In this document: piece after piece, positions 2,383-61,172 of the stretch
How positions within the stretch are numbered: the stretch's first letter is position 1
How the letters are laid out: every line of letters begins with the position of its first letter
Source of the DNA: Deltaproteobacteria bacterium
Lineage (GTDB): Bacteria; Desulfobacterota; RBG-13-43-22
NCBI GenBank assembly: GCA_016219225.1
Contig: JACRBX010000048.1
Span: 11,952 to 75,951, forward strand
Length of the DNA stretch: 64,000 nucleotides
Direction: 5' to 3'
Program-made: the position numbers and the translations under genes
Notes under the pieces: generated by a model
Databases searched by the model: none
What the model was told of the DNA's origin: nothing
The model's input: the letters and a program-made list of their open reading frames with translations, nothing else

Positions 2383-3858
2383 TTGCGTCACAGGATCTTC
2401 GGAACCGAAAACGAATATGCCCCTTTTGACCATAACCAGACGGCAACGCCCCAGGTCCCGCTATCCAACAGGGGTTGGCCCGAGGATCAAGGGGAATTGG
2501 CCGCCGGCCTGATCGAAGGCCTTCAGGGGTGCCAATACCCTCGGGCCGGAGAATTTTTGGGCAACGGTGGCCGATTGTACCTGGATCGGGGCGGGCACCC
2601 GGAATACGCTACCCCGGAGTGCCGCACGGTAAAAGACCTGGTGGCTCATGAAAAGGCCGGGGACGTCCTTATCCAGGCACTGGTGGAGAAGGTGCGCTCC
2701 CAACAACCCCACAACCGCCTCCATGTATACAAGAACAATTGCGATTCTTATGGCCACACCTATGGCGGCCATGAGAATTACCTGGTCACTTCCCTGGCCA
2801 TGAAGCATCTCGATCGTCTCGTCCCTTTCCTGGTTACCCGCCAGATCTATACCGGTACGGGCAAGATCATGACTTCCCCGCTCTGCAGCCTTCCGGCCTT
2901 CCAAATCAGCCAGCGGGCCGATTTTTTCGACGCAACCTTTTCCGACCGGACCTCCGAGACCCGGGGCATCATCAACATCCGTAAACGCGAAATAGCCCGG
3001 CCCGGAGAAAACCAGCGCCTGCATATCATCGTGGGCGACAGCAACATGTCCCAACCGGCCCTGGCCCTCAAAATAGGAACCACGGCCCTGATATTGCGGC
3101 TGTTGGAAGAAGAGGCCCTGGGCGAGGTCTTGGCCCTGGGCGCACCGGCCCAGGCCATCAAAGCGATCTCCCGTTCTTTGAAGGCCCCGGTGGCCATCCG
3201 GCGTCAAGGGCGGACCTTGCAGTACACGGCTTTAGAGGTCCAATCCCTGTATTTGGAAAAAGCCCTTCGATTCTGTGCCCGTCCGGGCACCGACCCCGAA
3301 GAGATCCGCTGGCTGGGCCTCTGGGAATATGTTTTGAAGGCCCTTAAATTTTTGGAAATCTCTCAGTCCGAGATGCTTCTTATCAACGACCCGGGAGAAT
3401 TGAAAAGAAAAATCGACTGGGTACTTAAACTCTGGCTCCTCAGCCGCTCCCGGTCCAAGGGTGCCGATGATCGGCAATTGAAACTCCTGGATCTGATATA
3501 CCACGACCTGGACCCTGCCTCCGGGCTCTTTGAACGTTGTCAGGCCCTGGGGCTGGTAGACCGGCTTGTGGACGAGGAGCGCATCCGACAGGCCCGGCGC
3601 AATCCTCCTGCGGACACCCGGGCCAGGCTGCGGGGCCTGATCATACAAAAAGCTTTTCATCAAAACGTGGACGTCCAGGTGGAGAACTGGGAAAGCATCC
3701 AGGTCCGGGCCCATCATCGTCGGGCCGGGATAAACCACCCTTTCCGCAACCTTACCACCGCGATGAACAAACTGGGGATCCGTCTGGATGACCCCTTCCA
3801 GGGAGAAAATCCCCAGGCCCTGGAGGAACTGGAACAATTTATTTTGGCCTGGGGCTGA
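2383..3858 (+). CDS. Pup-ligase/deamidase family protein (PafA/Dop-like, carboxylate-amine ligase)
   Basis: Motifs shared with PafA/Dop: N-terminal RIFGTENEY, GGRLYLDRGGHPEYATPEC, GGHENYL, LVPFLVTRQI, RLHIIVGDSNMS, DTRARLRG. No long Dop-loop insertion is apparent. Confidence 0.85.
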   Translation: MRHRIFGTENEYAPFDHNQTATPQVPLSNRGWPEDQGELAAGLIEGLQGCQYPRAGEFLGNGGRLYLDRGGHPEYATPECRTVKDLVAHEKAGDVLIQALVEKVRSQQPHNRLHVYKNNCDSYGHTYGGHENYLVTSLAMKHLDRLVPFLVTRQIYTGTGKIMTSPLCSLPAFQISQRADFFDATFSDRTSETRGIINIRKREIARPGENQRLHIIVGDSNMSQPALALKIGTTALILRLLEEEALGEVLALGAPAQAIKAISRSLKAPVAIRRQGRTLQYTALEVQSLYLEKALRFCARPGTDPEEIRWLGLWEYVLKALKFLEISQSEMLLINDPGELKRKIDWVLKLWLLSRSRSKGADDRQLKLLDLIYHDLDPASGLFERCQALGLVDRLVDEERIRQARRNPPADTRARLRGLIIQKAFHQNVDVQVENWESIQVRAHHRRAGINHPFRNLTTAMNKLGIRLDDPFQGENPQALEELEQFILAWG

Positions 3859-3864
3859 TAGACT

Positions 3865-4581
3865 ATGGATGGTCCGGATAAAAAAATCGTAAATATCAAT
3901 AGAGACCTCGAACGCAGCCGGGTGCGTCACGTCGTGATCGGCCAGTATATGCTGCACGAGGTCCAGCACCATTCCTTGCAGCACACCGGTTCTCCTTCCC
4001 TGATCCCCAAGGCCCACAGCCCGATGGATATATACAAGTGCCTGCATCAGGGGGAATTCGGCGTGGGCCACAGCCTGGATTATCCCAAACGGTTCCGGCA
4101 GCGTCTGGTCCGGGAAACGATGGAAGACGAGCCGGAAGAAGGCGCCCAGGAACCGGCCTTGGAAGACATCTCGGCCGAAGGCCGGGTACTGCGGGTGAAC
4201 CTGCGCGCTTTTAGAGGCCTTTTTAATCACGAAATAGACAAGCGTATCGACCAATTGGCCCAGGTCTGTTTTGAATCCGCGGAAACCGCCCGAGGGAGTG
4301 AGACCCGTTTCAGGGAAACGCTGGCTTTTTTTAAGGACCTCAATCAGGCCAATGAATTGAGGATCGGAAGGCAGTCCTTCGCCTTTCCCGGAGAAATGGT
4401 CGATCGATTCCTGCTCGAGGTCCATGATTTAACCCGACGTCTGGGGCAGGTCCCGATCTTCGGTCATTCGCCGGACTACCGCCGGCTCAATCATCCGGCC
4501 TACCGGGTAGTAGATCGGACGGTCCTGGAAAAATCGCCTTTGGCCGGACTTTTGAAAAAGACGCCGGAACCGACCAGGTAA
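3865..4581 (+). CDS. Hypothetical protein (238 aa), co-operonic with Pup-ligase homologue
   Basis: Begins 7 nt after the PafA-like stop; codon usage is coding-like. The overlapping minus-strand ORF 3232-4425 is antisense to the PafA-like gene and is taken as spurious. Confidence 0.5.
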   Translation: MDGPDKKIVNINRDLERSRVRHVVIGQYMLHEVQHHSLQHTGSPSLIPKAHSPMDIYKCLHQGEFGVGHSLDYPKRFRQRLVRETMEDEPEEGAQEPALEDISAEGRVLRVNLRAFRGLFNHEIDKRIDQLAQVCFESAETARGSETRFRETLAFFKDLNQANELRIGRQSFAFPGEMVDRFLLEVHDLTRRLGQVPIFGHSPDYRRLNHPAYRVVDRTVLEKSPLAGLLKKTPEPTR

Positions 4582-4594
4582 CGGAGGAAGATCC

Positions 4595-4906
4595 ATGGAT
4601 ATCAAAACCGCGGCGGCGGAGTTTCACGGGGCCTGTCTGGCGATTCTGGATCAACCAGAACTCCCAGCAGAATTAGCCTACCGGATGCAGCGGATCATAG
4701 ACCGCTTCCTGCCGGTGGCGGATAAGATGTATCTCAAGACGGTAAAAGGCTTCCAAACCGTTTTGCAGTGCACCCAGCAGGCCAGGACCATTACAGATCA
4801 CCTGCCAGCCGGCCGGTACCTTTTCTATCGGCAGGTTACGGATCTGGAAAATACCCTGGAGGAACTCCTCAAGGCGGCCTACGCATTTCGCATCAAGGCC
4901 GGCTGA
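4595..4906 (+). CDS. Hypothetical protein (103 aa)
   Basis: ORF 14 nt after the previous stop on the same strand; no recognisable motif. Confidence 0.45.
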   Translation: MDIKTAAAEFHGACLAILDQPELPAELAYRMQRIIDRFLPVADKMYLKTVKGFQTVLQCTQQARTITDHLPAGRYLFYRQVTDLENTLEELLKAAYAFRIKAG

Positions 4907-5067
4907 AATGAACCTGCCTTGGATTGTGGAGTTCGGAGTTCAAAGGAGTTTTCGATTGAAGAGTTAAGATCTAAGATATACGGATTTGATTTTGACTTCC
5001 TTCGACATTCATCATTCGTTATTCGATATTCGATATTCGCCTGTTTTATAAGGGTTCAAGAGAAAAT

Positions 5068-6900
5068 ATGGAAAATTCAAGCACTTCCTTCCAGGCCCTT
5101 TTACTGCAACCTCCCCCGGGAGATTTGACCGGCCCTTATCCGGCCCTGGGCTATTTGAAATCCTACGCCGCTCACCAGGGATTTTGCGTGAAAGTCAAAG
5201 ATCTGGGGATCGAAGCCCTGGATCATTTAACCCGGCCAGACCGGATCGCCCCCCTTCTCGACCAGGCCCGATCCATGCTTGGAGGGCTCAAGGCCCAAAA
5301 AGCCTTGGATGCCTCGGCACAGCAGCATTACCGCTTTTTATTGGCCGCCCTGGCGGCCGGACGACCGCCTCAATGGTTCTCCACCAACCTGGAAATTTTC
5401 CGGGACCCCGACCGGTTTTATGACTATCGGGAATATCAGAAGGCCCGGCTGGCCTTGAATGCCTTTTTCGGTCTGCTCAGCGCCGTCCATTTTCCCACCG
5501 TTCTGACTGCCGCCGAGTATCCCACGGCCGGCAGTCTCAAGACCTGGCCGGCTATCCTGGAACATTGCCAGGCCAGGGTCAACCCTTATGTGCATTACTA
5601 CGAAGAGGTCCTCTTCCCCCTGTTAGCCGCCCATCCGCCGGCCCTGGTAGGCATCTCCATGGTCTTTGCCAACCAGTCGGTCCAGGCCCTGGTCCTGGGC
5701 CGCCTGATCAAGAGGCACTTCCCCCAGATCCAGGTGACCATGGGAGGCGCCTATCTTTCCCAATGGGTCATGCTCCTGGAAGGTGCCCGGCTGGAAGAAT
5801 TTTTTCAGTGCACCGATTCCATCGTTATCGGGGAAGGAGAAAAACCCTTTGCCCGGCTGCTGGGAAAAATTAGCAACGGCCAGGGGCTGGAGGCGGTCCC
5901 AAATTTAGTCTATCGCCAGCGGTCAACGGGGAGGATCCATCGGTCGGCCGCTTTTGAATATACGGATATCGCTCACCAGCCTCCCCCTGATTTTTCCGAT
6001 CTCGACCTGGCCGCCTATTTGAGTCCCCAGCCTGTTATCCCCTACTGCATCAGCCGGGGTTGTTATTGGGGGAAATGTGTCTTTTGCCAGAACCGCTACG
6101 GGGACCGGCAAGTTCGCCGCTATCAGGTGGTTCCCGTAGATAAAGCCATCGAAGAACTATCGGCCTTGGCGGACCGATACGGCTCGAACCATTTTAATTT
6201 CAGTAACGACGTGATCGATCCGAAATATCTGAAGCGGTTCAGTCAGGCGGTCGAATCCTCCGGCCGGAAGTTTGTCTGGAATACGGATTTACGGGCGGAG
6301 AAGGCCTATACCAGGGATGTCTGCCGACTGATGGCCAGGGCCGGGTTAAACGCTGTGGCCATCGGGTTTGAAAGCGGCTGCCAGAAGGTCCTGGAAGCCA
6401 TGGATAAAGGCAATCGGGTGCCTACCACCCGGCAGGTCTTGAAAAATTTATACCAGGCCGGGGTGGCCACCCAGGCCATGGGCTTTTTTGGATTCCCCGG
6501 AGAAACGGAAGCAGACGGAGAAAAGACCGTTCGGTTTTTGGAGGAAAACATCGCCTGTATTTCTTATTATGTTATGGGTCTTCTGCTGGTGCTTCCCGGC
6601 TCCAGGATGTACGAAGACCCCCGGCGGTTCGGGGTAACCGCTCTCCGATACGAAGGCAATTCCCTGATGACCCCGGAGCCGGTCTGGAAATCAGATATCC
6701 GTATGTCCATGGCCGCGGTCAATCGTCTCTATCAGCGGTTGAGCCGGCTGGAAGCCCTTTATCTCCTGGATGACTATCCCTACGTGGGAGGCTTATCCAC
6801 CAATCATGGTTTTCTTTATTTTAAGTCCGGACCGGACATCCTCAAGGTCCTGCGAAAGCAGGAAAAGGAAGGAACCCATCAACAGATGCTGGTTGCTTGA
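5068..6900 (+). CDS. B12-binding domain radical SAM protein (cluster motif CYWGKCVFC = CX4CX2C)
   Basis: N-terminal Rossmann-like B12-binding region (ALVGISMVFANQ...VTMGGAYLS), then SRGCYWGKCVFCQN and a radical SAM barrel. 610 aa. Confidence 0.8.
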   Translation: MENSSTSFQALLLQPPPGDLTGPYPALGYLKSYAAHQGFCVKVKDLGIEALDHLTRPDRIAPLLDQARSMLGGLKAQKALDASAQQHYRFLLAALAAGRPPQWFSTNLEIFRDPDRFYDYREYQKARLALNAFFGLLSAVHFPTVLTAAEYPTAGSLKTWPAILEHCQARVNPYVHYYEEVLFPLLAAHPPALVGISMVFANQSVQALVLGRLIKRHFPQIQVTMGGAYLSQWVMLLEGARLEEFFQCTDSIVIGEGEKPFARLLGKISNGQGLEAVPNLVYRQRSTGRIHRSAAFEYTDIAHQPPPDFSDLDLAAYLSPQPVIPYCISRGCYWGKCVFCQNRYGDRQVRRYQVVPVDKAIEELSALADRYGSNHFNFSNDVIDPKYLKRFSQAVESSGRKFVWNTDLRAEKAYTRDVCRLMARAGLNAVAIGFESGCQKVLEAMDKGNRVPTTRQVLKNLYQAGVATQAMGFFGFPGETEADGEKTVRFLEENIACISYYVMGLLLVLPGSRMYEDPRRFGVTALRYEGNSLMTPEPVWKSDIRMSMAAVNRLYQRLSRLEALYLLDDYPYVGGLSTNHGFLYFKSGPDILKVLRKQEKEGTHQQMLVA

Positions 6901-12811: not shown

Positions 12812-14011
12812 TTAGAGCTCTTCCTGCTGAACCATCTCCGAGGCCTTACATTGCGCCTCTTCCCATACCTTTTTTATTGGCACATGCTGTTCCCGGGCGA
12901 TCCGTTTACAATCCTCATACTCCGGGGCGATGTTGACGGCCCGGTTATCGAACCGGGCCACTTTGCACTGGACCCGCCCGAAGCGGGTGCTGACCTCCTG
13001 GATCTTTCGGTTGAGCCGCAGACGCTGATCCAGACGCCAGCGCAGTCCGATGGTCGTGGTCTCCCGAAAAATAAAATCGGCCAGACCGGGCAGTTGTTCG
13101 AGACGGCAGAGGATGGTCACCAGGACCCCGGTGCGGTTTTTTTTCATCTGCACCGAAGTGAAAAAAATATCCAGGGCGCCCTGTTGTAAAACCCTTTCAA
13201 TCAAAAAATCATAGAACTGCGGGTTCATGTCATCGATGGTCGTTTCAATAACCGCCGTTTGTTCCACTTCGTATTGGGTCAACCCCTGGGCCGTTTGTCC
13301 GATAAAAAGACGCAACAGGTTGGCCAGGGAGCGATCGGCGGTTCCTGCGCCCTGTCCGACCTTTTCCACGGTCATGGCCGGCATGGGCCCGAATTCGGTC
13401 GCCAGGGTGGTCAAAATTGCGGCCCCGGTCGGGGTAAGCAATTCCCCTTGAACCCCGGTAGCATAAACCGGCTTCCCGATGATCAACTCAGCCGTGGCCG
13501 GGGCCGGCACCGGCAGAAGGCCATGAGCGCATTCCACGGTTCCTGTTCCCACATGGAGTGGCGAGCAATGGATCTTCTCGATCCCCAGTCCCCGTATACC
13601 GATAGCCGCACCGACCACATCAATGATGGCGTCCATGGCGCCTACCTCGTGAAAATGGATGGAAGCCACCTCCGTCTGGTGCACTTTGGCCTCGGCCTCG
13701 GCCAGACGGCTAAAGATCTTCAGACTGTCGTCTTTAATAGCCTGATCCAGACGGCTTTCTTCAATGATCGCCCGAATGTCTTCCAGGTGTCGATGATGAT
13801 GATGGTGATGATCCTGGTCGATAGTCACCAGGGCCTGGCTGCCGGACAACCCTTTTTTAACGACCTTCACGACCTTAAGGTCGTAGTGGGACAACGACAG
13901 CTTGGACAGTTCATTTTGTAGATACTCCAGGGGCAATCCCGCATCCAGGAGGGCCCCCAGAATCATATCGCCGCTGGCTCCGGAAAAACAATCAAAATAA
14001 GCGATCTTCAT
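12812..14011 (-). CDS. larC: Nickel-pincer cofactor biosynthesis protein LarC (DUF111 nickel insertase)
   Basis: N-terminus MKIAYFDCFSGASGDM is typical of LarC; a His-rich linker (DHHHHHHRH) is present; 399 aa. Confidence 0.8.
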   Translation of the reverse strand: MKIAYFDCFSGASGDMILGALLDAGLPLEYLQNELSKLSLSHYDLKVVKVVKKGLSGSQALVTIDQDHHHHHHRHLEDIRAIIEESRLDQAIKDDSLKIFSRLAEAEAKVHQTEVASIHFHEVGAMDAIIDVVGAAIGIRGLGIEKIHCSPLHVGTGTVECAHGLLPVPAPATAELIIGKPVYATGVQGELLTPTGAAILTTLATEFGPMPAMTVEKVGQGAGTADRSLANLLRLFIGQTAQGLTQYEVEQTAVIETTIDDMNPQFYDFLIERVLQQGALDIFFTSVQMKKNRTGVLVTILCRLEQLPGLADFIFRETTTIGLRWRLDQRLRLNRKIQEVSTRFGRVQCKVARFDNRAVNIAPEYEDCKRIAREQHVPIKKVWEEAQCKASEMVQQEEL

Positions 14012-55364: not shown

Positions 55365-55579
55365 TTTTAACCTCCATGTTTTTATTAATGTTCAAAACAT
55401 AAATAGTATAAGTTTTGATAGTCAATATGTTTAGTATTTTTTCATACCCCAGTCCCAACCCCTTGTCAAGCTTTTTTTTACCCGTTCTGCCACTAAGACA
55501 CGAAGGCGCAAAGAAGGGATATAGAGAATTATTATTTAACCTTTGTGGCTTTGTGACTTGGTGGCTGAACTATTACTTT

Positions 55580-57220
55580 TTACCACGGATCGACGAAAGA
55601 GTGTCCGGTCCCCTTCCTGCCTTCAGCCGGGACGGATCTCAAGCCTTCCAGAAGCCAGCGGCGGGTCTCGGCCGGATCAATTACGGCATCGATTTCGAGA
55701 TGGGAGGCCATATTGATGGCCTTTCCCCTCTCATAGAGTTGGGCAACCAATTTTTCGTAGAGCGCTTCACGCTCCTTGGGATTTTCAATAGCCGCAAGCT
55801 CTTTCTTGTATCCGGCTTTAACCGCGCCTTCCAGCCCCATGCCCCCGAATTCTCCGGTCGGCCAGGCCACCGTGAAGAACGATTCATGAAAGCCCCCCCT
55901 GGCCATAGCCATGGCTCCCAGACCGTATCCCCGGCGTAAAACAACCGTAAAGTACGGTATGGTTAGATGAGCGCCGACAACAAACATACGGCAAACATGG
56001 CGAACCTGGGCCCGTTTCTCGATCTCCGGCCCCACCATGAATCCCGGGGTGTCGCACAAAGACAGTATCGGCAGGCCATGGGCATTGCAAAGCTGCATCA
56101 GGCGCACGGCTTTGTCGGCATCTTCGGCTTCGATAGCTCCGCCCATATGCTTGCAGTTGTTGGCGATCAGACCGAAAGGTCTTCCTTCGATGCGGATCAG
56201 GCCCGTAACCATTCCGGGTCCGAATTGGGGCCGAAGCTCCAGAAACGATCCCGTATCGGCAAGCGTTTTAATCACGGTCCGCACTTCATAAACCCGGCGC
56301 CGGTTTTCCGGCAGCAAGCCCCGCAGAATACCCTGGTCGGCGGCCTCCCAGGGGGAAGTCGTTCCCTGGAAATAAGAAAGATATTGCCTGGCCGCGGCCA
56401 CCATCTCCTGATCATCCGCCACAGCGATATCGACTACGCCGTTTTTGGTCTGCACCTCAATGGGGCCAACCTCCTCCGGTCTGAAAACCCCGAGTCCGCC
56501 GCCTTCAATCATCACCGGTCCGCCCATACCGATATTGGAATTCCTGGTGGCAATAATCACATCGCAGCAGCCGAGCAGGGCTGCATTGCCTGCAAAACAG
56601 GGTCCTGATACGAGGCCTATCATCGGAACCCGGCCGCTGAGTCTGGCGAACAAGGCGAAGGTCGATAAATCCAGCCCTGCCACTACGACCCCGTCGGCAT
56701 CAACATCGCCCGGCCTTCCACCGCCGCCTTCCCCGAAAAAAATCAGGGGCAGGCGCTGCTCATAGGCCAGCTTCAGTATACGATCCTTCTTTTTGTGGTT
56801 AAAATAACCCTGGGTGCCGGCCAGAACGGTATAATCATAGGCCATCACCAGACAGCGGGCCTGGTCATCTCCGCATTGGGAGCCGTTTACCGACCCGATG
56901 CCTGTGATCAGGCCGTCGGCCGGGGTCTTGCTGATGAGGTCTTCCATGGAACGCCGCCCCCGTTGGGCGGCGATGGCGAGTGCGCCGTATTCAATGAAAC
57001 GTCCCGGGTCGCAGAGGTCCTCTATGTTGGCGCGGACCGTGCGCTGGTTTTTTTGCCGCCGCCGGGCCACCGCCTCGGGGCGATTTGCATCAAGGCCGAA
57101 AGAATGGCGCTGGATCACCTCGGCCAGTTCAGGACGTATCGGATGCCGGTCGGTTTTTTTATCAATGGGCGGGCCACTCTTTCCGGCCATCGCTTCTTCT
57201 TTATCTTTAGATGTTTTCAT
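55580..57220 (-). CDS. Acyl-CoA carboxylase carboxyltransferase subunit (PccB/MmdA-like)
   Basis: Both halves of the carboxyltransferase domain are present; start set at MKTSKDK with AGGTG upstream. Confidence 0.8.
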   Translation of the reverse strand: MKTSKDKEEAMAGKSGPPIDKKTDRHPIRPELAEVIQRHSFGLDANRPEAVARRRQKNQRTVRANIEDLCDPGRFIEYGALAIAAQRGRRSMEDLISKTPADGLITGIGSVNGSQCGDDQARCLVMAYDYTVLAGTQGYFNHKKKDRILKLAYEQRLPLIFFGEGGGGRPGDVDADGVVVAGLDLSTFALFARLSGRVPMIGLVSGPCFAGNAALLGCCDVIIATRNSNIGMGGPVMIEGGGLGVFRPEEVGPIEVQTKNGVVDIAVADDQEMVAAARQYLSYFQGTTSPWEAADQGILRGLLPENRRRVYEVRTVIKTLADTGSFLELRPQFGPGMVTGLIRIEGRPFGLIANNCKHMGGAIEAEDADKAVRLMQLCNAHGLPILSLCDTPGFMVGPEIEKRAQVRHVCRMFVVGAHLTIPYFTVVLRRGYGLGAMAMARGGFHESFFTVAWPTGEFGGMGLEGAVKAGYKKELAAIENPKEREALYEKLVAQLYERGKAINMASHLEIDAVIDPAETRRWLLEGLRSVPAEGRKGTGHSFVDPW

Positions 57221-57354
57221 GGGCTGCACCTTTCCCTTAATTCCCTCCGGAGTTTTTCCCGCAAAAGGCAGGAACGGAATTTTAAAAATCTATACCAAGA
57301 AATCCACAAAGTCAAAATGTTTGGACCCGGCGTTTAAAGACAAGAAGCACTGTT

Positions 57355-57545: not shown

Positions 57546-57990
57546 GATCCCCGAAGAATCTTATCGGTCAGTTTTTCCGTCTTTCCTGTTCCATGACCCC
57601 TCCTTTGGGGAGAGGAAGCCCAAAAAAAAATCCCCGGCCGGGCATCTGCCGGTCGGGGAACCATTTTTGAACCCCCTCACCGGTCTTTACCTCGAAGACG
57701 TTTTCGTGAGGAGATCCAGGCAGGTTTCCTGACTCAGGGATTATTCTCCCCCTGCCCTTCCCATTCCACCCTCAGCCATCCTCGGGTGAAACAGTGGTTA
57801 TTGCAGGGATTGTACCCCTTTACAGTGGCGGGACCGCGCCGGTCTTTCACCGGCTTCCCTATTGACGTCCTTCTTAAGGACACCTGGATCTAACGCTATT
57901 TAATTAATCAGAATCATCGAGGCTTGTCAATTCCCTTTTTCAGCCTCCCTTTTTCCTTTTGTCTTTCTGTCCCTTCCTAAAAAGGAGCCT

Positions 57991-58021: not shown

Positions 58022-58176
58022 ACAAAAACAAGGTATTCACTTCATTTTTATATCAGTGGGTGAAACGAAGTTCCACCTGTCTTACAGGAGATCCGTCTCA
58101 GATAAATTTATCTTGAAATAAACTCTGTTATGTATTATTTTTAAATAAAATTTAGTCTAAAGGAGGTGAGGATACC

Positions 58177-58338
58177 ATGTGTTGCCATACCAAAGAGAAA
58201 CATGAACACGAGCATGAGCATACCGAGGAGGCTCATACCCACGATGGGCATGAACACAAGCATGAACCGCAAAAGCATGCCCATGAGCATCGTCATGATG
58301 ACGACCATCATGACCACCAGCATCAGTGCTGCCATTAA
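58177..58338 (+). CDS. Histidine-rich micro-protein (53 aa, MCCH...CCH), putative metal-binding
   Basis: Absent from the ORF track (below 60 aa). Strong SD AAGGAGGTGA lies 7 nt before the ATG. Product MCCHTKEKHEHEHEHTEEAHTHDGHEHKHEPQKHAHEHRHDDDHHDHQHQCCH; a hairpin plus T-tract follows the stop. Confidence 0.6.
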   Translation: MCCHTKEKHEHEHEHTEEAHTHDGHEHKHEPQKHAHEHRHDDDHHDHQHQCCH

Positions 58339-58365
58339 AGGGAAGCCACAACTTTAGTTACAAAA

Positions 58366-58428
58366 GAAGCCACGAAGGCAATCACCTGGTCTGAAGATCG
58401 GGAGGTTTTCGTGGCTTCCCTTTTTTAG
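58366..58428 (+). terminator. Intrinsic terminator after the His-rich ORF, with an alternative 5' pairing partner
   Basis: gaagccacgaa...ttcgtggcttc followed by ccttttttag. An upstream gggaagccac (58341-58350) can also pair with the same 3' arm. Confidence 0.55.
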
Positions 58429-58477
58429 AGAGGGATTACGTTGATGTACCTTTTCAAGAACAAGGATTCTTTTTTTA

Positions 58478-58508
58478 TTGACATCTGAGGAGAAACTGTC
58501 GTATTAAT
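58478..58508 (+). promoter_or_regulatory. Sigma-70-type promoter candidate for the TonB-dependent receptor operon
   Basis: TTGACA, 18-nt spacer, TATTAAT. Confidence 0.45.
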
Positions 58509-58567
58509 TTGTTTCAGGAAGGCTACGAAGGCCATTCCTTGTTTGATTAAAAGCAAGTATCTTAGTT

Positions 58568-58625
58568 AAGGCCACGAAGGCCAGGGCTGAAAAACAGCCG
58601 GGTTTTCTTGGCCTTTTTTATTTCA
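58568..58625 (+). promoter_or_regulatory. Leader hairpin plus U-tract (attenuator/riboswitch-like) in the receptor 5' leader
   Basis: aaggccacgaaggccagggctgaaaaacagccgggttttcttggccttttttatt. The GCYACGAAGGC motif is repeated three times (58369, 58524, 58571), which allows alternative pairings. Confidence 0.4.
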
Positions 58626-58862
58626 GGGGAAAGGACTTTACGCTGATCAAGCGTGCGTTTTAAGTGACATACAAGGAGGTGTTGGAGGAGATGAAACTCC
58701 AATGCCTATAAGGAAATGGGTAAAGATAAGAAGCCGGCAGGGCCACAACCTTTGGCCAGGGGCGCCCTGCCGGCAGGAGTAACGTCGTACCGAACAAACG
58801 CCCCCCTTTTTAGTTAATACCAGAAAGGGGGTGAAAAAACAAAAAGAAAAAGGAGGAAATCT

Positions 58863-61172
58863 ATGAGGTGGTTCCTTACTGTTTTTATGAGCCTTCTTCT
58901 GAGTTGGATTATTAATATGCCATTGTCGCAGGCCGAAGAGATAATGGAAAAGCCCGGACAGGAAGAAACCAAACTTGAGCTTGAGGAGATTGTCGTCACC
59001 CCCACCGGCAGGATATCGAATGAAGCCTTGGTCAACATCCCCGCCGTAGTCGAATCCTTAACCCCCGAAGGTATTGAGCGGATCAATGCCATTGATACCT
59101 CGGATGTCTTCAAGTACCTGCCCGGTTCCTATTTACGTAAACTTGCCCCGGGCTCCACCAACAGGCCTTTGATCATCCGGGGCAATGCCTCGTTTCTGAC
59201 CGCCCGGACCCTGGTGCTGGCCGACGGAATCCGGATCAGCGATTTTCTGGCCGCCGGAAACAGCAACGGACCCAAATGGCAGATGGTGGCACCCGAGGAG
59301 ATCGAGCGGGTGGATGTCATTTACGGCCCCTATTCGGCGGCCCTCAGCGGCAATTCGCTTTCCGGTACGGCTATGATCACCACCCGCTTTCCTCAAAAGA
59401 GGGAAATCCGGGCCGATGCCAATACCTTCTATCAGAACTTCCAGGAATACCATACCAATCTGGACCTCCGGGGATACACGGCCAACGTCTCCTATGGAGA
59501 TAAAATCGGGGGGCTTTCTTTCCTGGCCTGGTATGACCGGCTTGAGACGGACGTCCAGCCAACCACCTACATTACCAGGCAGGCCTCGGCCGGAGGTGTC
59601 TCCGGGGGCAGTGCAGTCACCGGATGGGTATCCGATTCGGATCCCAAGGGAGCGAAAAGATACATTCTGGGAAGCTACGGGAAGCAGGAACTGGTGAACA
59701 ACACCCTTAAGGTCAAAATGGCCTATGATTTAACCTCCGAGCAACAGATCCGTTTTATCTGGGCTTTTTGGGACAGCCGGCAACAAAACGGCGCACCAGA
59801 AACCTATTTGCGGGACGCCCAGGGAAGGCCGGTCTACTCAGGACCGGTGGTCATAAACGGTAAGAGTTATAATCTGGCTGCCAACACCTTCACCTACCAA
59901 AAGGCAGAAAAACAGGACTTTCTCTATGCCCTCACTTATGGGCTCAACTCGGCAACCGGTCTGAAACTGTCGGTCTCCACCAGCTTCTATAATCTGGCCA
60001 AAGACATCACCCGTCAATCGGGCGTAAGCCCTACGGTGTCCGAAAGCGGAGGAGCGGGCAAGGTAACGGATAATGACAATGGCTGGAATACGGCCGATCT
60101 GAAAGGTTCATACGATCTTAAATGGCTTGGTGTGCATACCCTTGGGACCGGTTACCACTTCGACCGTTATTATGTAGACTCGTCGACCTGGAACGCCTCG
60201 GATTGGGATAGGGACATCCGGACCAGTCTCAGTCAAAGGGATCAAGGGAAAACGGAGACCCATGGTTTTTTTCTGGAAGACACCTGGAACCTCGACAAAC
60301 AATGGTCCGTCTATCTGGGAGGCCGGTATGAATGGTGGAAGGGATTCGACGGGGCCAAATCGACCGACGGACTTACCGGACGCATCACAACCGGTCTGGC
60401 CGATAAAAACGAAAAGGGGTTTTCCCCGAAATTCTCAACCACCTTTAAACCATCGGAGGACTGGCGGCTCCGTTTTTCCCTCGGATTGGCCAATCGATAC
60501 CCCACAGTCGGGGAACTCTATTACGGGGGGATTACCTCCCAGGGAATGATCAACAACGGCAATCCTGATCTGAAGCCGGAGAAGATCTTCGCCAAGGATT
60601 TCACCATTACCCGCGCCCTTGGCAGTCTGGGGGATACCCGTCTGACCTTTTTCGAAGATGACGTCAAGGACGCCATTAACAACCAAACCAGCTTCTATAC
60701 CAATTGGACCAACTACCAGAACGTCGATGAGGTCAGGACCAGAGGGATCGAGTTGGCTGTAAATCTGCAAAGATTCCTGATCCCCGGTCTGGGATTATTT
60801 ACCAATGTCGCCTGGACCGAGTCGGAGATTCTGAGGAACGACAATGTCCCGGCCAGCGTCGGTAAGACCTTCCCCCGGGTGCCGAAATGGCGGCTGAAAT
60901 GCGTTCTGGACTATGCCCCTTCGGAACGCTGGTTTGTGACCTTCAGCGGGCATTATGCCAGCAAACAGTTCGGAACGCTGGACAACAGCGATACCAACGA
61001 CGGATATGGTGCAATCGATCGTTTCCTGGTTTTTGACACCAAGTTTTCCTATAAACTGCACAAGAATCTGACGGCCGCCGTCGGGGTCGACAACCTCACC
61101 AACGTATTATATCACGTTTCCCACCCCTATCCGAGAAGGACCTTTTTTGCCAATTTGAAATTTAATTTTTAA
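58863..61172 (+). CDS. TonB-dependent outer-membrane receptor
   Basis: Signal peptide, plug domain, a 22-strand-barrel-like region and a terminal aromatic residue (...LKFNF); 769 aa. Confidence 0.9.
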   Translation: MRWFLTVFMSLLLSWIINMPLSQAEEIMEKPGQEETKLELEEIVVTPTGRISNEALVNIPAVVESLTPEGIERINAIDTSDVFKYLPGSYLRKLAPGSTNRPLIIRGNASFLTARTLVLADGIRISDFLAAGNSNGPKWQMVAPEEIERVDVIYGPYSAALSGNSLSGTAMITTRFPQKREIRADANTFYQNFQEYHTNLDLRGYTANVSYGDKIGGLSFLAWYDRLETDVQPTTYITRQASAGGVSGGSAVTGWVSDSDPKGAKRYILGSYGKQELVNNTLKVKMAYDLTSEQQIRFIWAFWDSRQQNGAPETYLRDAQGRPVYSGPVVINGKSYNLAANTFTYQKAEKQDFLYALTYGLNSATGLKLSVSTSFYNLAKDITRQSGVSPTVSESGGAGKVTDNDNGWNTADLKGSYDLKWLGVHTLGTGYHFDRYYVDSSTWNASDWDRDIRTSLSQRDQGKTETHGFFLEDTWNLDKQWSVYLGGRYEWWKGFDGAKSTDGLTGRITTGLADKNEKGFSPKFSTTFKPSEDWRLRFSLGLANRYPTVGELYYGGITSQGMINNGNPDLKPEKIFAKDFTITRALGSLGDTRLTFFEDDVKDAINNQTSFYTNWTNYQNVDEVRTRGIELAVNLQRFLIPGLGLFTNVAWTESEILRNDNVPASVGKTFPRVPKWRLKCVLDYAPSERWFVTFSGHYASKQFGTLDNSDTNDGYGAIDRFLVFDTKFSYKLHKNLTAAVGVDNLTNVLYHVSHPYPRRTFFANLKFNF

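Follow-up and report, generated by a model that had tools for sequence, protein, structure and literature searches.

A conserved family of terminator hairpins and a second leader element as candidate RNA regulators of a predicted metal-uptake cluster in Nitrospirota and Desulfobacterota

The leader of a TonB-dependent receptor gene in a 64-kb stretch of DNA from a Deltaproteobacteria bacterium (the whole stretch is called the window below, and coordinates count from its first nucleotide) holds two conserved RNA elements, which we term E1 and E2. E1 is a terminator hairpin with a strongly conserved 5' arm, of which two copies lie between a gene for a 53-residue His-rich protein (58177-58338, plus strand) and the receptor gene that the leader would regulate (58863-61172, plus strand; 769 amino acids), while E2 (58728-58862, plus strand) directly precedes the receptor start codon. 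We lean, by a small measure, towards reading them as two RNA modules in series, with E1 as an attenuator that would be opened by a trans-acting factor and E2 as a translational operator of the metal-uptake receptor. Systems based on attenuation or leader control are known as such; what is new is a sequence-specific terminator family in the leaders and operon ends of one metal-uptake cluster in two phyla, together with the E2 leader. The literature library that was searched held nothing relevant on either element.

Most known RNAs that sense metals either turn on exporters or govern Mg and Mn transporters, and the control of Ni, Co or Zn uptake through TonB-dependent systems is usually attributed to protein repressors such as NikR, Zur and Fur. 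Here an uptake cluster found in two phyla carries the same terminator hairpin before its operons and a second conserved leader before its receptor, with no linked repressor gene. If read-through at E1 depends on metal supply, these elements would constitute a new attenuation system with a 13-nt recognition sequence, from which the binding factor should be easy to fish out, and would furnish a sequence marker for the metal-acquisition regulon in uncultured anaerobes.

The E1 family of terminator hairpins

The comparison drew on 36 related loci, a set with some redundancy, which were gathered by searching genomes and metagenomes with the receptor protein and by looking up close homologues. They derive from Nitrospirota (Nitrospira and Thermodesulfovibrionales metagenome-assembled genomes, or MAGs) and from Desulfobacterota (Syntrophobacteraceae, Desulfobacteraceae, Desulfospira and Syntrophaceae), and are cited below by L numbers where they must be told apart. 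A covariance model of E1, designated R1, was built from 11 copies, and a search with it yielded 28 copies in the window and in 15 distinct related loci of both phyla: four in L001, three in L027, two each in the window, L002, L010, L022, L023, L026 and L033, and one each in L003, L006, L011, L012, L014, L021 and L030. All copies with E <= 1e-5, in the initial 264 kb and in the loci added later, lie within the clusters and on the strand of the cluster genes. The two in the window are the only ones in its 64 kb, and both fall inside the same 260-nt stretch.

The E1 layout comprises AAGCCACGAAGGC, a variable internal loop, an inner hairpin, the complementary segment (G)YUUUCGUGGCUU and a U-run. 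The first window copy, E1a (about 58365-58425, plus strand; 53.7 bits, E 1.3e-9), terminates the His-rich gene; its stem GAAGCCACGAA/TTCGTGGCTTC is followed by CC and T6, its inner hairpin is capped by UGAA, and its predicted folding energy is -31.1 kcal/mol. The second, E1b (58567-58622, plus strand; 53.0 bits, E 1.9e-9), is the candidate attenuator of the receptor leader, with a 5' arm AAGGCCACGAAGGCC, an inner hairpin GGCUG-AAAAA-CAGCC, a 3' arm GGUUUUCUUGGCCUU and then U6AUUU, at -29.3 kcal/mol; the sequence scan also listed it as terminator-like. A preliminary description of the sequence had recognized this copy as a terminator-like hairpin with a U-tract and a duplicated AAGGCCA, which indeed occurs at 58568 and 58577; the other features it listed are likewise all present, at the positions it gave or a few bases away. 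A T-run follows every copy of the family, so that E1 has the form of an intrinsic (Rho-independent) terminator, that is, a stable G+C-rich hairpin directly before a U-run.

Pairing of the long E1 helix, P1, is well supported by comparison. Its positions are paired in 92.5% of cases, none of 500 shuffled alignments equalled either its covariation score or its paired fraction, and displacement of the partner strand by a single column lowered pairing to 43-52%. Compensatory changes include CCAGGAAG/CUUCCUGG in L006, GCCAUGAA/UUCAUGGC in L022, L027 and L033, and ACC/GGU in L021. All 22 aligned copies share the two-helix shape, at -20 to -37 kcal/mol, and the inner hairpin is constantly present while its sequence differs in nearly every lineage. 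The two arms of the helix are unequally conserved: summed column entropy is 2.26 bits in the 5' arm against 7.39 bits in the 3' arm, which drifts through G-U wobble, and the non-canonical cells of the helix comprise 30 G-U against 9 A-C combinations. This one-sided conservation, together with the excess of G-U, shows that selection acts on the RNA of the gene strand. Selection on the sequence of the 5' arm exceeds what pairing alone demands.

Copy number, strand bias and conservation of a single arm led us to reject an origin of E1 as a genome-wide repeat (a repetitive extragenic palindrome, an uptake sequence or a miniature inverted-repeat transposable element) or as part of a mobile element. 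BLAST comparison of the leader with plasmid and phage collections gave no match.

E1 between promoters and start codons

E1b lies downstream of a promoter-like site for the receptor leader, TTGACA-18-TATTAA, read from the sequence at 58478-58507 (hexamers at 58478-58483 and 58502-58507, plus strand). The sigma-70 promoter previously proposed downstream of the His-rich gene terminator thus has both hexamers in place, and L021 has a TTGACA at the matching position; the promoter scan omitted the window site because the last base of its -10 hexamer is A and not T. E1b begins 60 nt after the -10 hexamer, about 55 nt past the expected transcript start and 240 nt before the receptor ATG. L021, the nearest relative with this layout and with a receptor 79% identical to that of the window, repeats the order of TTGACA promoter, small hairpin, E1, E2 and receptor, and TTGACA stands at a comparable distance upstream of E1 not only there but also in L011, L006, L001, L026, L027, L022, L014 and L033.

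Elsewhere the arrangement is still more compact. A TTGACA-17-(G)ATAAT-like promoter precedes four copies (L001:485, L026:7410, L027:197 and L022:1080), with 10-15 nt between its -10 hexamer and the hairpin, and at five others (L027:433, L033:3854, L001:937, L022:1249 and L014:377) only 10-18 nt separate the U-run from a ribosome-binding site or start codon. The latter leave no room for a second promoter, and hence their genes would be transcribed only by read-through of E1. In L033 two tandem copies stand behind one promoter. E1 thus occupies the place of an attenuator, between a promoter, in each case a predicted one, and a start codon. A strong terminator in this position implies conditional read-through, and from this layout we infer that read-through at the leader copies is probably regulated. 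The preliminary description had offered an attenuator or a riboswitch as the likely nature of the leader; the notion of a conserved, structured cis-regulatory leader with an attenuator-type terminator holds, but no catalogued riboswitch was found in it.

E1 also follows the His-rich gene in L001, L023, L026 and L027; with E1a, five copies end this gene, and all others are found in 5' leaders. The same four loci retain, despite divergence of the spacer, a segment that we call arm A (AAAGGGAAGCCAY); in the window it is AAAGGGAAGCCAC (58337-58349, plus strand), 2 nt past the stop codon of the His-rich gene. Arm A is complementary to the 3' arm of E1a (58411-58423) over 13 nt at 100%, and this pairing and the E1a stem are predicted to be mutually exclusive. 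When arm A is included, the minimum-energy fold pairs it with the E1a 3' arm and sets free a mini hairpin, GCC-ACGAA-GGC, in the E1a 5' arm. Attenuation in the style of the His operon, by translation of the His-rich reading frame, was considered as a general mechanism and rejected, the gene standing mostly at an operon end with E1 facing convergent or unrelated genes.

Paired hairpins with NGAA-type caps

The motif GCYACGAAGGC, which had been noted as occurring thrice in the leader, is present exactly three times in the 64-kb window (at 58369, 58522 and 58571), always on the plus strand, against an expectation of 0.03; none of 100 shuffled sequences reached three. The count therefore stands, but the copies are not equivalent units. 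Those at 58369-58379 and 58571-58581 are the 5' arms of E1a and E1b, whereas that at 58522-58532 caps a small 5'-proximal hairpin predicted by folding, H0 (58517-58545, plus strand; CAGGAAGGCU-ACGAA-GGCCAUUCCUUG), whose GGCU-ACGAA-GGCC core has neither a matching 3' arm nor a U-tract. The 5' arm of E1 can fold in like manner into the mini hairpin GCC-ACGAA-GGC, and, by folding of the nascent RNA, it is predicted to adopt this form while the 3' arm is yet to be synthesised.

This similarity extends across the family. Within the 110 nt upstream, 16 of the 28 E1 copies have a hairpin with an NGAA or NNGAA cap and a stem of 4 bp or more, against a background of 0.057 per 110 nt. In ten of the remaining 12 the inner hairpin carries an AGAA, UGAA or GGAA cap, and these ten include all nine operon-end and promoter-proximal copies; the copy of L012 and that at L010:1848 have neither form of capped hairpin. 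In four copies the arm reads AUGAA, and there the upstream loop is UGAA. Across the window as a whole, neither CC-N(1-2)-GAAGG nor hairpins with NGAA caps are enriched.

The E2 leader element

The leader is more stable than its composition would suggest: the predicted fold of 58510-58880 has an energy of -131.3 kcal/mol against -105.0 +/- 5.5 for shuffled sequences (z = -4.74). Its 3' part is E2, delimited by a second covariance model, R2, which the window copy matches with 97.8 bits (E about 1e-23). Eleven copies were recovered, each immediately 5' of a receptor start: one each in the window, L005, L021, L022, L023, L025, L026, L027 and L033, and two in L001, the second of which precedes a paralogous receptor. 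They score 84-127 bits, with nothing else above 13 bits in 366 kb. The Desulfobacterota loci in which E1 occurs (L002, L003, L006 and L010-L012) lack E2.

In order, E2 consists of GGGGCAGGG, the loop NNAACCUUUGGNNGGANN, CCCUGCCCC, GGAGGGAAACG...ACG, CCCCCUUU...AAAGGGGGUGA, an A/G-rich linker, GGAGG and AUG. The main helix of the window copy, P1, joins 58733-58743 to 58764-58774 (GCCGGCAGGGC/GCCCTGCCGGC, 100% complementary, with a core GGCAGGG/CCCUGCC) and encloses the conserved loop AACCUUUGGCC at 58747-58757; a linker GGAGUAACG...AAACG follows. Helix P3 pairs CGCCCCCCUUUUU (58799-58811) with AGAAAGGGGGUG (58822-58833), and within this region the hairpin CCCCCTTT/AAAGGGGG joins 58802-58814 to 58819-58831; an A-rich linker then leads to the ribosome-binding site GGAGG (58852-58856). 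The two G+C-rich hairpins reported earlier before the Shine-Dalgarno sequence correspond to P1 and to this second hairpin. The C/U-rich strand CCCCCUUUUU can pair alternatively with AAAAAGGAGG at the ribosome-binding site or with AAAGGGGG, and the ribosome-binding site is free in the minimum-energy folds. A pseudoknot between the loop CCUUUGG and either the flank of the ribosome-binding site or AAAGGGGG is possible; of the 11 sequences, L001b has CCUG with CAGG. We regard an RNA structure in E2 as plausible and as a good hypothesis. A G-quadruplex was discarded, the window copy having too few G-runs.

Between E1b and E2 lies a spacer (58623-58727, plus strand) with local hairpins at 58639-58655 and about 58681-58705, which is not kept in L021, where some 45 unrelated nt stand in its place. 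The spacer includes a possible upstream open reading frame of six codons (MKLQCL, 58691-58711), not conserved in L021; 12 nt before it is a perfect AAGGAGGTG, which repeats the ribosome-binding site of the His-rich gene. In Desulfobacterota loci without E2 a different hairpin, GAAGGCNGU..UUAACCG....CUGCCUUC followed by CCCCCGNAUGGAAGG, is shared after E1 (L006 about 5705-5750, L012 about 2728-2775 and L014 about 470-520), and it is possibly a third motif in the leaders of this receptor family.

A proposed mechanism and its alternatives

In the mechanism that we favour, E1b, downstream of the leader's own promoter, would stop most transcripts before the receptor gene. The emerging 5' arm of E1 (GCCACGAAGGC) would fold first as the mini hairpin GCC-ACGAA-GGC, beside a second NGAA-capped hairpin supplied either by H0 upstream or by the E1 inner hairpin. 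When metal is scarce, a trans-acting factor, most likely a protein, would recognise this hairpin pair or the sequence of the 5' arm; once bound, it would keep the 5' arm off the 3' arm, and the polymerase would read through. That a protein does so, and that the mini hairpin is the form it recognises, is likewise inferred. Transcripts that pass E1 would carry E2, which probably sets the translation or stability of the receptor message, and whose C/U-rich strand may switch between AAAGGGGG and the ribosome-binding site. A bolder version of this proposal, which we put forward only tentatively and hold to be doubtful, is that E1 and E2 each represent an undescribed class of metal-homeostasis RNA and that together they run the whole Ni/Co/Zn acquisition regulon in anaerobes of the Nitrospirota and Desulfobacterota, with no DNA-binding repressor involved. 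E1 would then be either a self-contained switch of about 60 nt built into a terminator or the target of new metal-responsive RNA-binding antiterminators that recognise paired NGAA-capped hairpins, and E2 would be the first riboswitch-like shut-off of a metal-uptake receptor.

Several observations weigh against the two-module mechanism. No candidate E1-binding protein was identified, the called neighbouring genes being without a known RNA-binding regulator domain. The case for conditional read-through is drawn from gene layout; the -10 hexamer of the window promoter is weak; and five E1 copies stand at operon ends after the 53-residue His-rich gene, where a plain terminator suffices. The related loci were gathered through the receptor protein, and the unbiased test of the restriction of E1 to the cluster is therefore the single 64-kb window. 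Hairpins with NGAA caps are common in general, at about 0.5 per kb, and hence the claim of paired hairpins depends on their association with E1; moreover, the mini hairpin has 3-4 base pairs, and covariation separates neither it nor the pairing of arm A from the long helix. Finally, E2 is 92.8% paired, but seven of its nine P1 pairs are invariant, only two show changes in both partners, and its score is equalled in 13 of 500 shuffles, so that the invariance of the helix leaves its covariation support weak. The covariation among orthologous leaders to which the preliminary description had looked is thus found in the E1 helix but is nearly missing from the main helix of E2.

It has also to be asked whether a protein is needed at all, since E1, E2 or both might be true riboswitches, with a Ni, Co or Zn ion, a metallophore or a corrinoid as the ligand. 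Its binding would make the E1 terminator more stable and, in E2, move the C/U-rich strand onto the ribosome-binding site, closing uptake. Both elements are conserved, specific to the cluster, on the gene strand and in 5' leaders, as such a reading would have it, and where E1 copies stand next to a promoter with no other RNA upstream, any sensor would have to lie within about 60 nt. Furthermore, pairing does not explain the conserved E2 loop (ACCUUUGG..GGA) and linker, the C/U-rich strand has alternative partners, no linked regulator gene was seen in the neighbourhoods, and tandem copies such as those of E1 occur in some riboswitches. However, the conserved bases of E1 lie in the arm of a Watson-Crick helix and not in a junction, its internal loops vary in length and sequence with no evident pocket, and its helix needs no ligand for stability (-20 to -37 kcal/mol). 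The E2 core helix lacks covariation, the ribosome-binding site is free in minimum-energy folds, and no riboswitch model matches either element. On this balance we consider riboswitches unlikely.

Alternatively, E1 might be no more than a terminator cassette, constitutive or leaky, or might form the 3' ends of small stable RNAs, and might have been copied within a horizontally spread metal-uptake island, its sequence being conserved through shared descent or the needs of RNA stability and not for regulation. The five copies after the His-rich gene do look like ordinary operon-end terminators, every copy combines a strong hairpin with a U-tract, the promoter-proximal copies would yield RNAs of about 65-70 nt, and the occurrence of the cluster in two phyla suggests horizontal transfer. 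Against this, in loci whose receptors have only 57-66% identity with that of the window, the 13-nt 5' arm is nearly invariant while the inner hairpin and flanks have fully diverged; a strong terminator that lay behind the promoter and ended 10-18 nt short of a start codon would, if unregulated, silence the gene; and the co-occurrence with NGAA-capped hairpins is far above chance. We therefore regard a passive cassette as decidedly improbable. That the inverted repeats (GCCACGAA...TTCGTGGC, GGCAGGG...CCCTGCC or both) are DNA operators of a metal-responsive repressor, with the RNA hairpins incidental, is very improbable, for although both E2 arms are invariant as in a protein-recognised palindrome and E1 copies just past promoters would suit a roadblock repressor, arm spacing varies (24-36 nt in E1, 17-22 nt in E2), E1 conserves a single arm with mismatches mostly G-U on the gene strand (30 against 9), the orientation always follows the gene with the T-run always after the hairpin, and long non-palindromic stretches of E2 are conserved beside the ribosome-binding site.

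Comparison with known RNA regulators

Scanning of the leader (58339-58862) with Rfam 15 gave only chance-level matches (E 0.5-9) to unrelated eukaryotic and small-RNA models. The idea that the leader might be cobalamin- or NiCo-responsive therefore found no backing from family membership: neither model matched it even at E <= 10, including the cobalamin riboswitch (RF00174, clan CL00101), and at E <= 1 neither NiCo nor any other family was recorded at E1 or E2 in six orthologous loci. The earlier remark that no B12-box consensus could be recognised agrees with this, there being no B12 box in the leader. In the window Rfam 15 has a single family match, to a cobalamin aptamer of full length on the minus strand (57702-57902, 115 bits), with its own terminator at 57659-57631 and U9 on that strand. 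Lying 440 nt upstream on the opposite strand and facing away, it cannot act on the receptor gene. The next sizeable minus-strand gene after it encodes a carboxyl transferase (55580-57229), about 390 nt on, with a promoter-like site between them.

The arrangement of E1 recalls the leaders bound by ANTAR proteins such as EutV, NasR and AmiR, which also have two alike small hairpins at a variable distance, one of them overlapping the 5' part of a terminator. By this logic, a protein that binds the hairpin pair would prevent termination. In both cases the element is found in several operons of one pathway, at times as tandem copies. The ANTAR target consists of two 3-bp stems with hexaloops whose first and fourth positions are A and G (PMC3369931). 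E1 shares the overlap, the mini hairpin being itself the 5' arm of the E1 helix, but its loops are of 4-5 nt (ACGAA, AUGAA, NGAA) and are not hexaloops. Unlike in ANTAR systems, moreover, the second hairpin may sit inside the terminator loop, no ANTAR gene is present in the neighbourhoods, and there is no Rfam match. The ribonucleic antiterminators (RAT) of BglG and SacY resemble E1 in that a conserved recognition sequence overlaps the 5' arm of the terminator while the other arm is conserved in pairing only. They differ in being about 29 nt long, in having their own consensus and in belonging to sugar phosphotransferase system (PTS) operons; here there is no sequence similarity to them and no gene for a PRD protein.

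The NiCo (czcD) riboswitch is likewise a cis-acting RNA tied to genes of Ni/Co homeostasis, but it is a four-way junction that turns exporters on, and its model has no match here. Unlike it, the element described here precedes uptake genes and would need to turn them off under ample metal. The btuB-type cobalamin leaders are similar in placing a long structured leader, with control by a terminator and at the ribosome-binding site, before a TonB-dependent receptor. A cobalamin aptamer does neighbour the clusters in the window and in L002, that of the window being on the opposite strand, where it would serve the divergent transcript.

Gene neighbourhood and metal context

Among named relatives, those closest to the window receptor come from MAGs of Thermodesulfovibrionales (72% identity) and Nitrospira (69%); the homologous receptor is also present in Desulfobacter curvatus DSM 3379 (L007). 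In the window the receptor gene is followed by genes for a DUF4198 protein, a weakly NikL-like protein of 168 amino acids, ExbB and ExbD. The constant neighbourhood across loci comprises the receptor, one or two DUF4198 genes, a protein of about 150-170 residues, the 53-residue His-rich protein, TonB, ExbB and ExbD, to which a methyltransferase, DUF8180, longer His-rich proteins and a CobN-like gene or second receptor are frequently added. The 168-residue protein matches NikL with E 2.6e-7, below the curated cut-off, and a DUF4198 protein of Neisseria is a periplasmic zinc-capture protein (PMC12663993). Taken together, the NikL-like protein and the DUF4198 precedent identify the cluster as a divalent-metal uptake system. 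The signal for leader control is probably the supply of Ni, Co or Zn, as judged from neighbours that include DUF4198, the weakly NikL-like protein, His-rich proteins, a CobN-like protein, CbiK and HypC. No DNA-binding regulator domain was found among the called genes of 12 related loci.

The His-rich gene is the first of the window's cluster, an open reading frame of 53 codons (MCCH...CCH, 20 His). An orthologue of 53 residues with the same ends occurs in L001 (10449-10610), and genes of the same length with the same C-terminal coding sequence and flank stand at the matching place in L023 (8007-8168), L026 (7022-7183) and L027 (8205-8366). No Pfam or NCBIfam family includes the protein, which contains about 20 His, has Cys-Cys pairs at each end and resembles the small Ni-storage proteins of Helicobacter in composition only; longer His-rich proteins (76-105 residues) are encoded in the same clusters. 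A perfect 14-bp palindrome, AGATAAATTTATCT (58100-58113), overlaps the -35 hexamer of the gene's predicted promoter (58113-58141) and looks like a Fur-family box.

DUF8180, a helical protein of 66 residues with a conserved W..HN.EHA motif, often follows an E1 copy (L001 5622-5822, L022 1312-1512, L023 324-524, L027 1602-1802 and L033 10450-10650). As a candidate linked trans factor it was set aside: it is not encoded in the window, and its sole resemblance, a weak one, is to designed di-iron four-helix bundles (E 0.075).

Further genes fit a Ni/Co context. In L021 a CobN-like chelatase gene lies beside the receptor together with DUF2162, ExbB and DUF2149 genes (2564-6595), and in L033 a gene for the hydrogenase-maturation protein HypC is near the cluster (13121-13405). 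In L002 a cobalamin riboswitch (2432-2617, 107 bits) precedes a gene for a CbiK-like cobaltochelatase with a signal peptide (3045-3995). Two E1 copies and the receptor come directly after the cobaltochelatase gene, a hint that the cluster is connected with cobalt or corrinoids. Away from the cluster, the window contains a degenerate E1-like inverted repeat, GACACGAAGGC ... CCTTTGTGGC (55497-55549), between two minus-strand metabolic genes; it scores below the reporting threshold of the E1 model and may be a relic.

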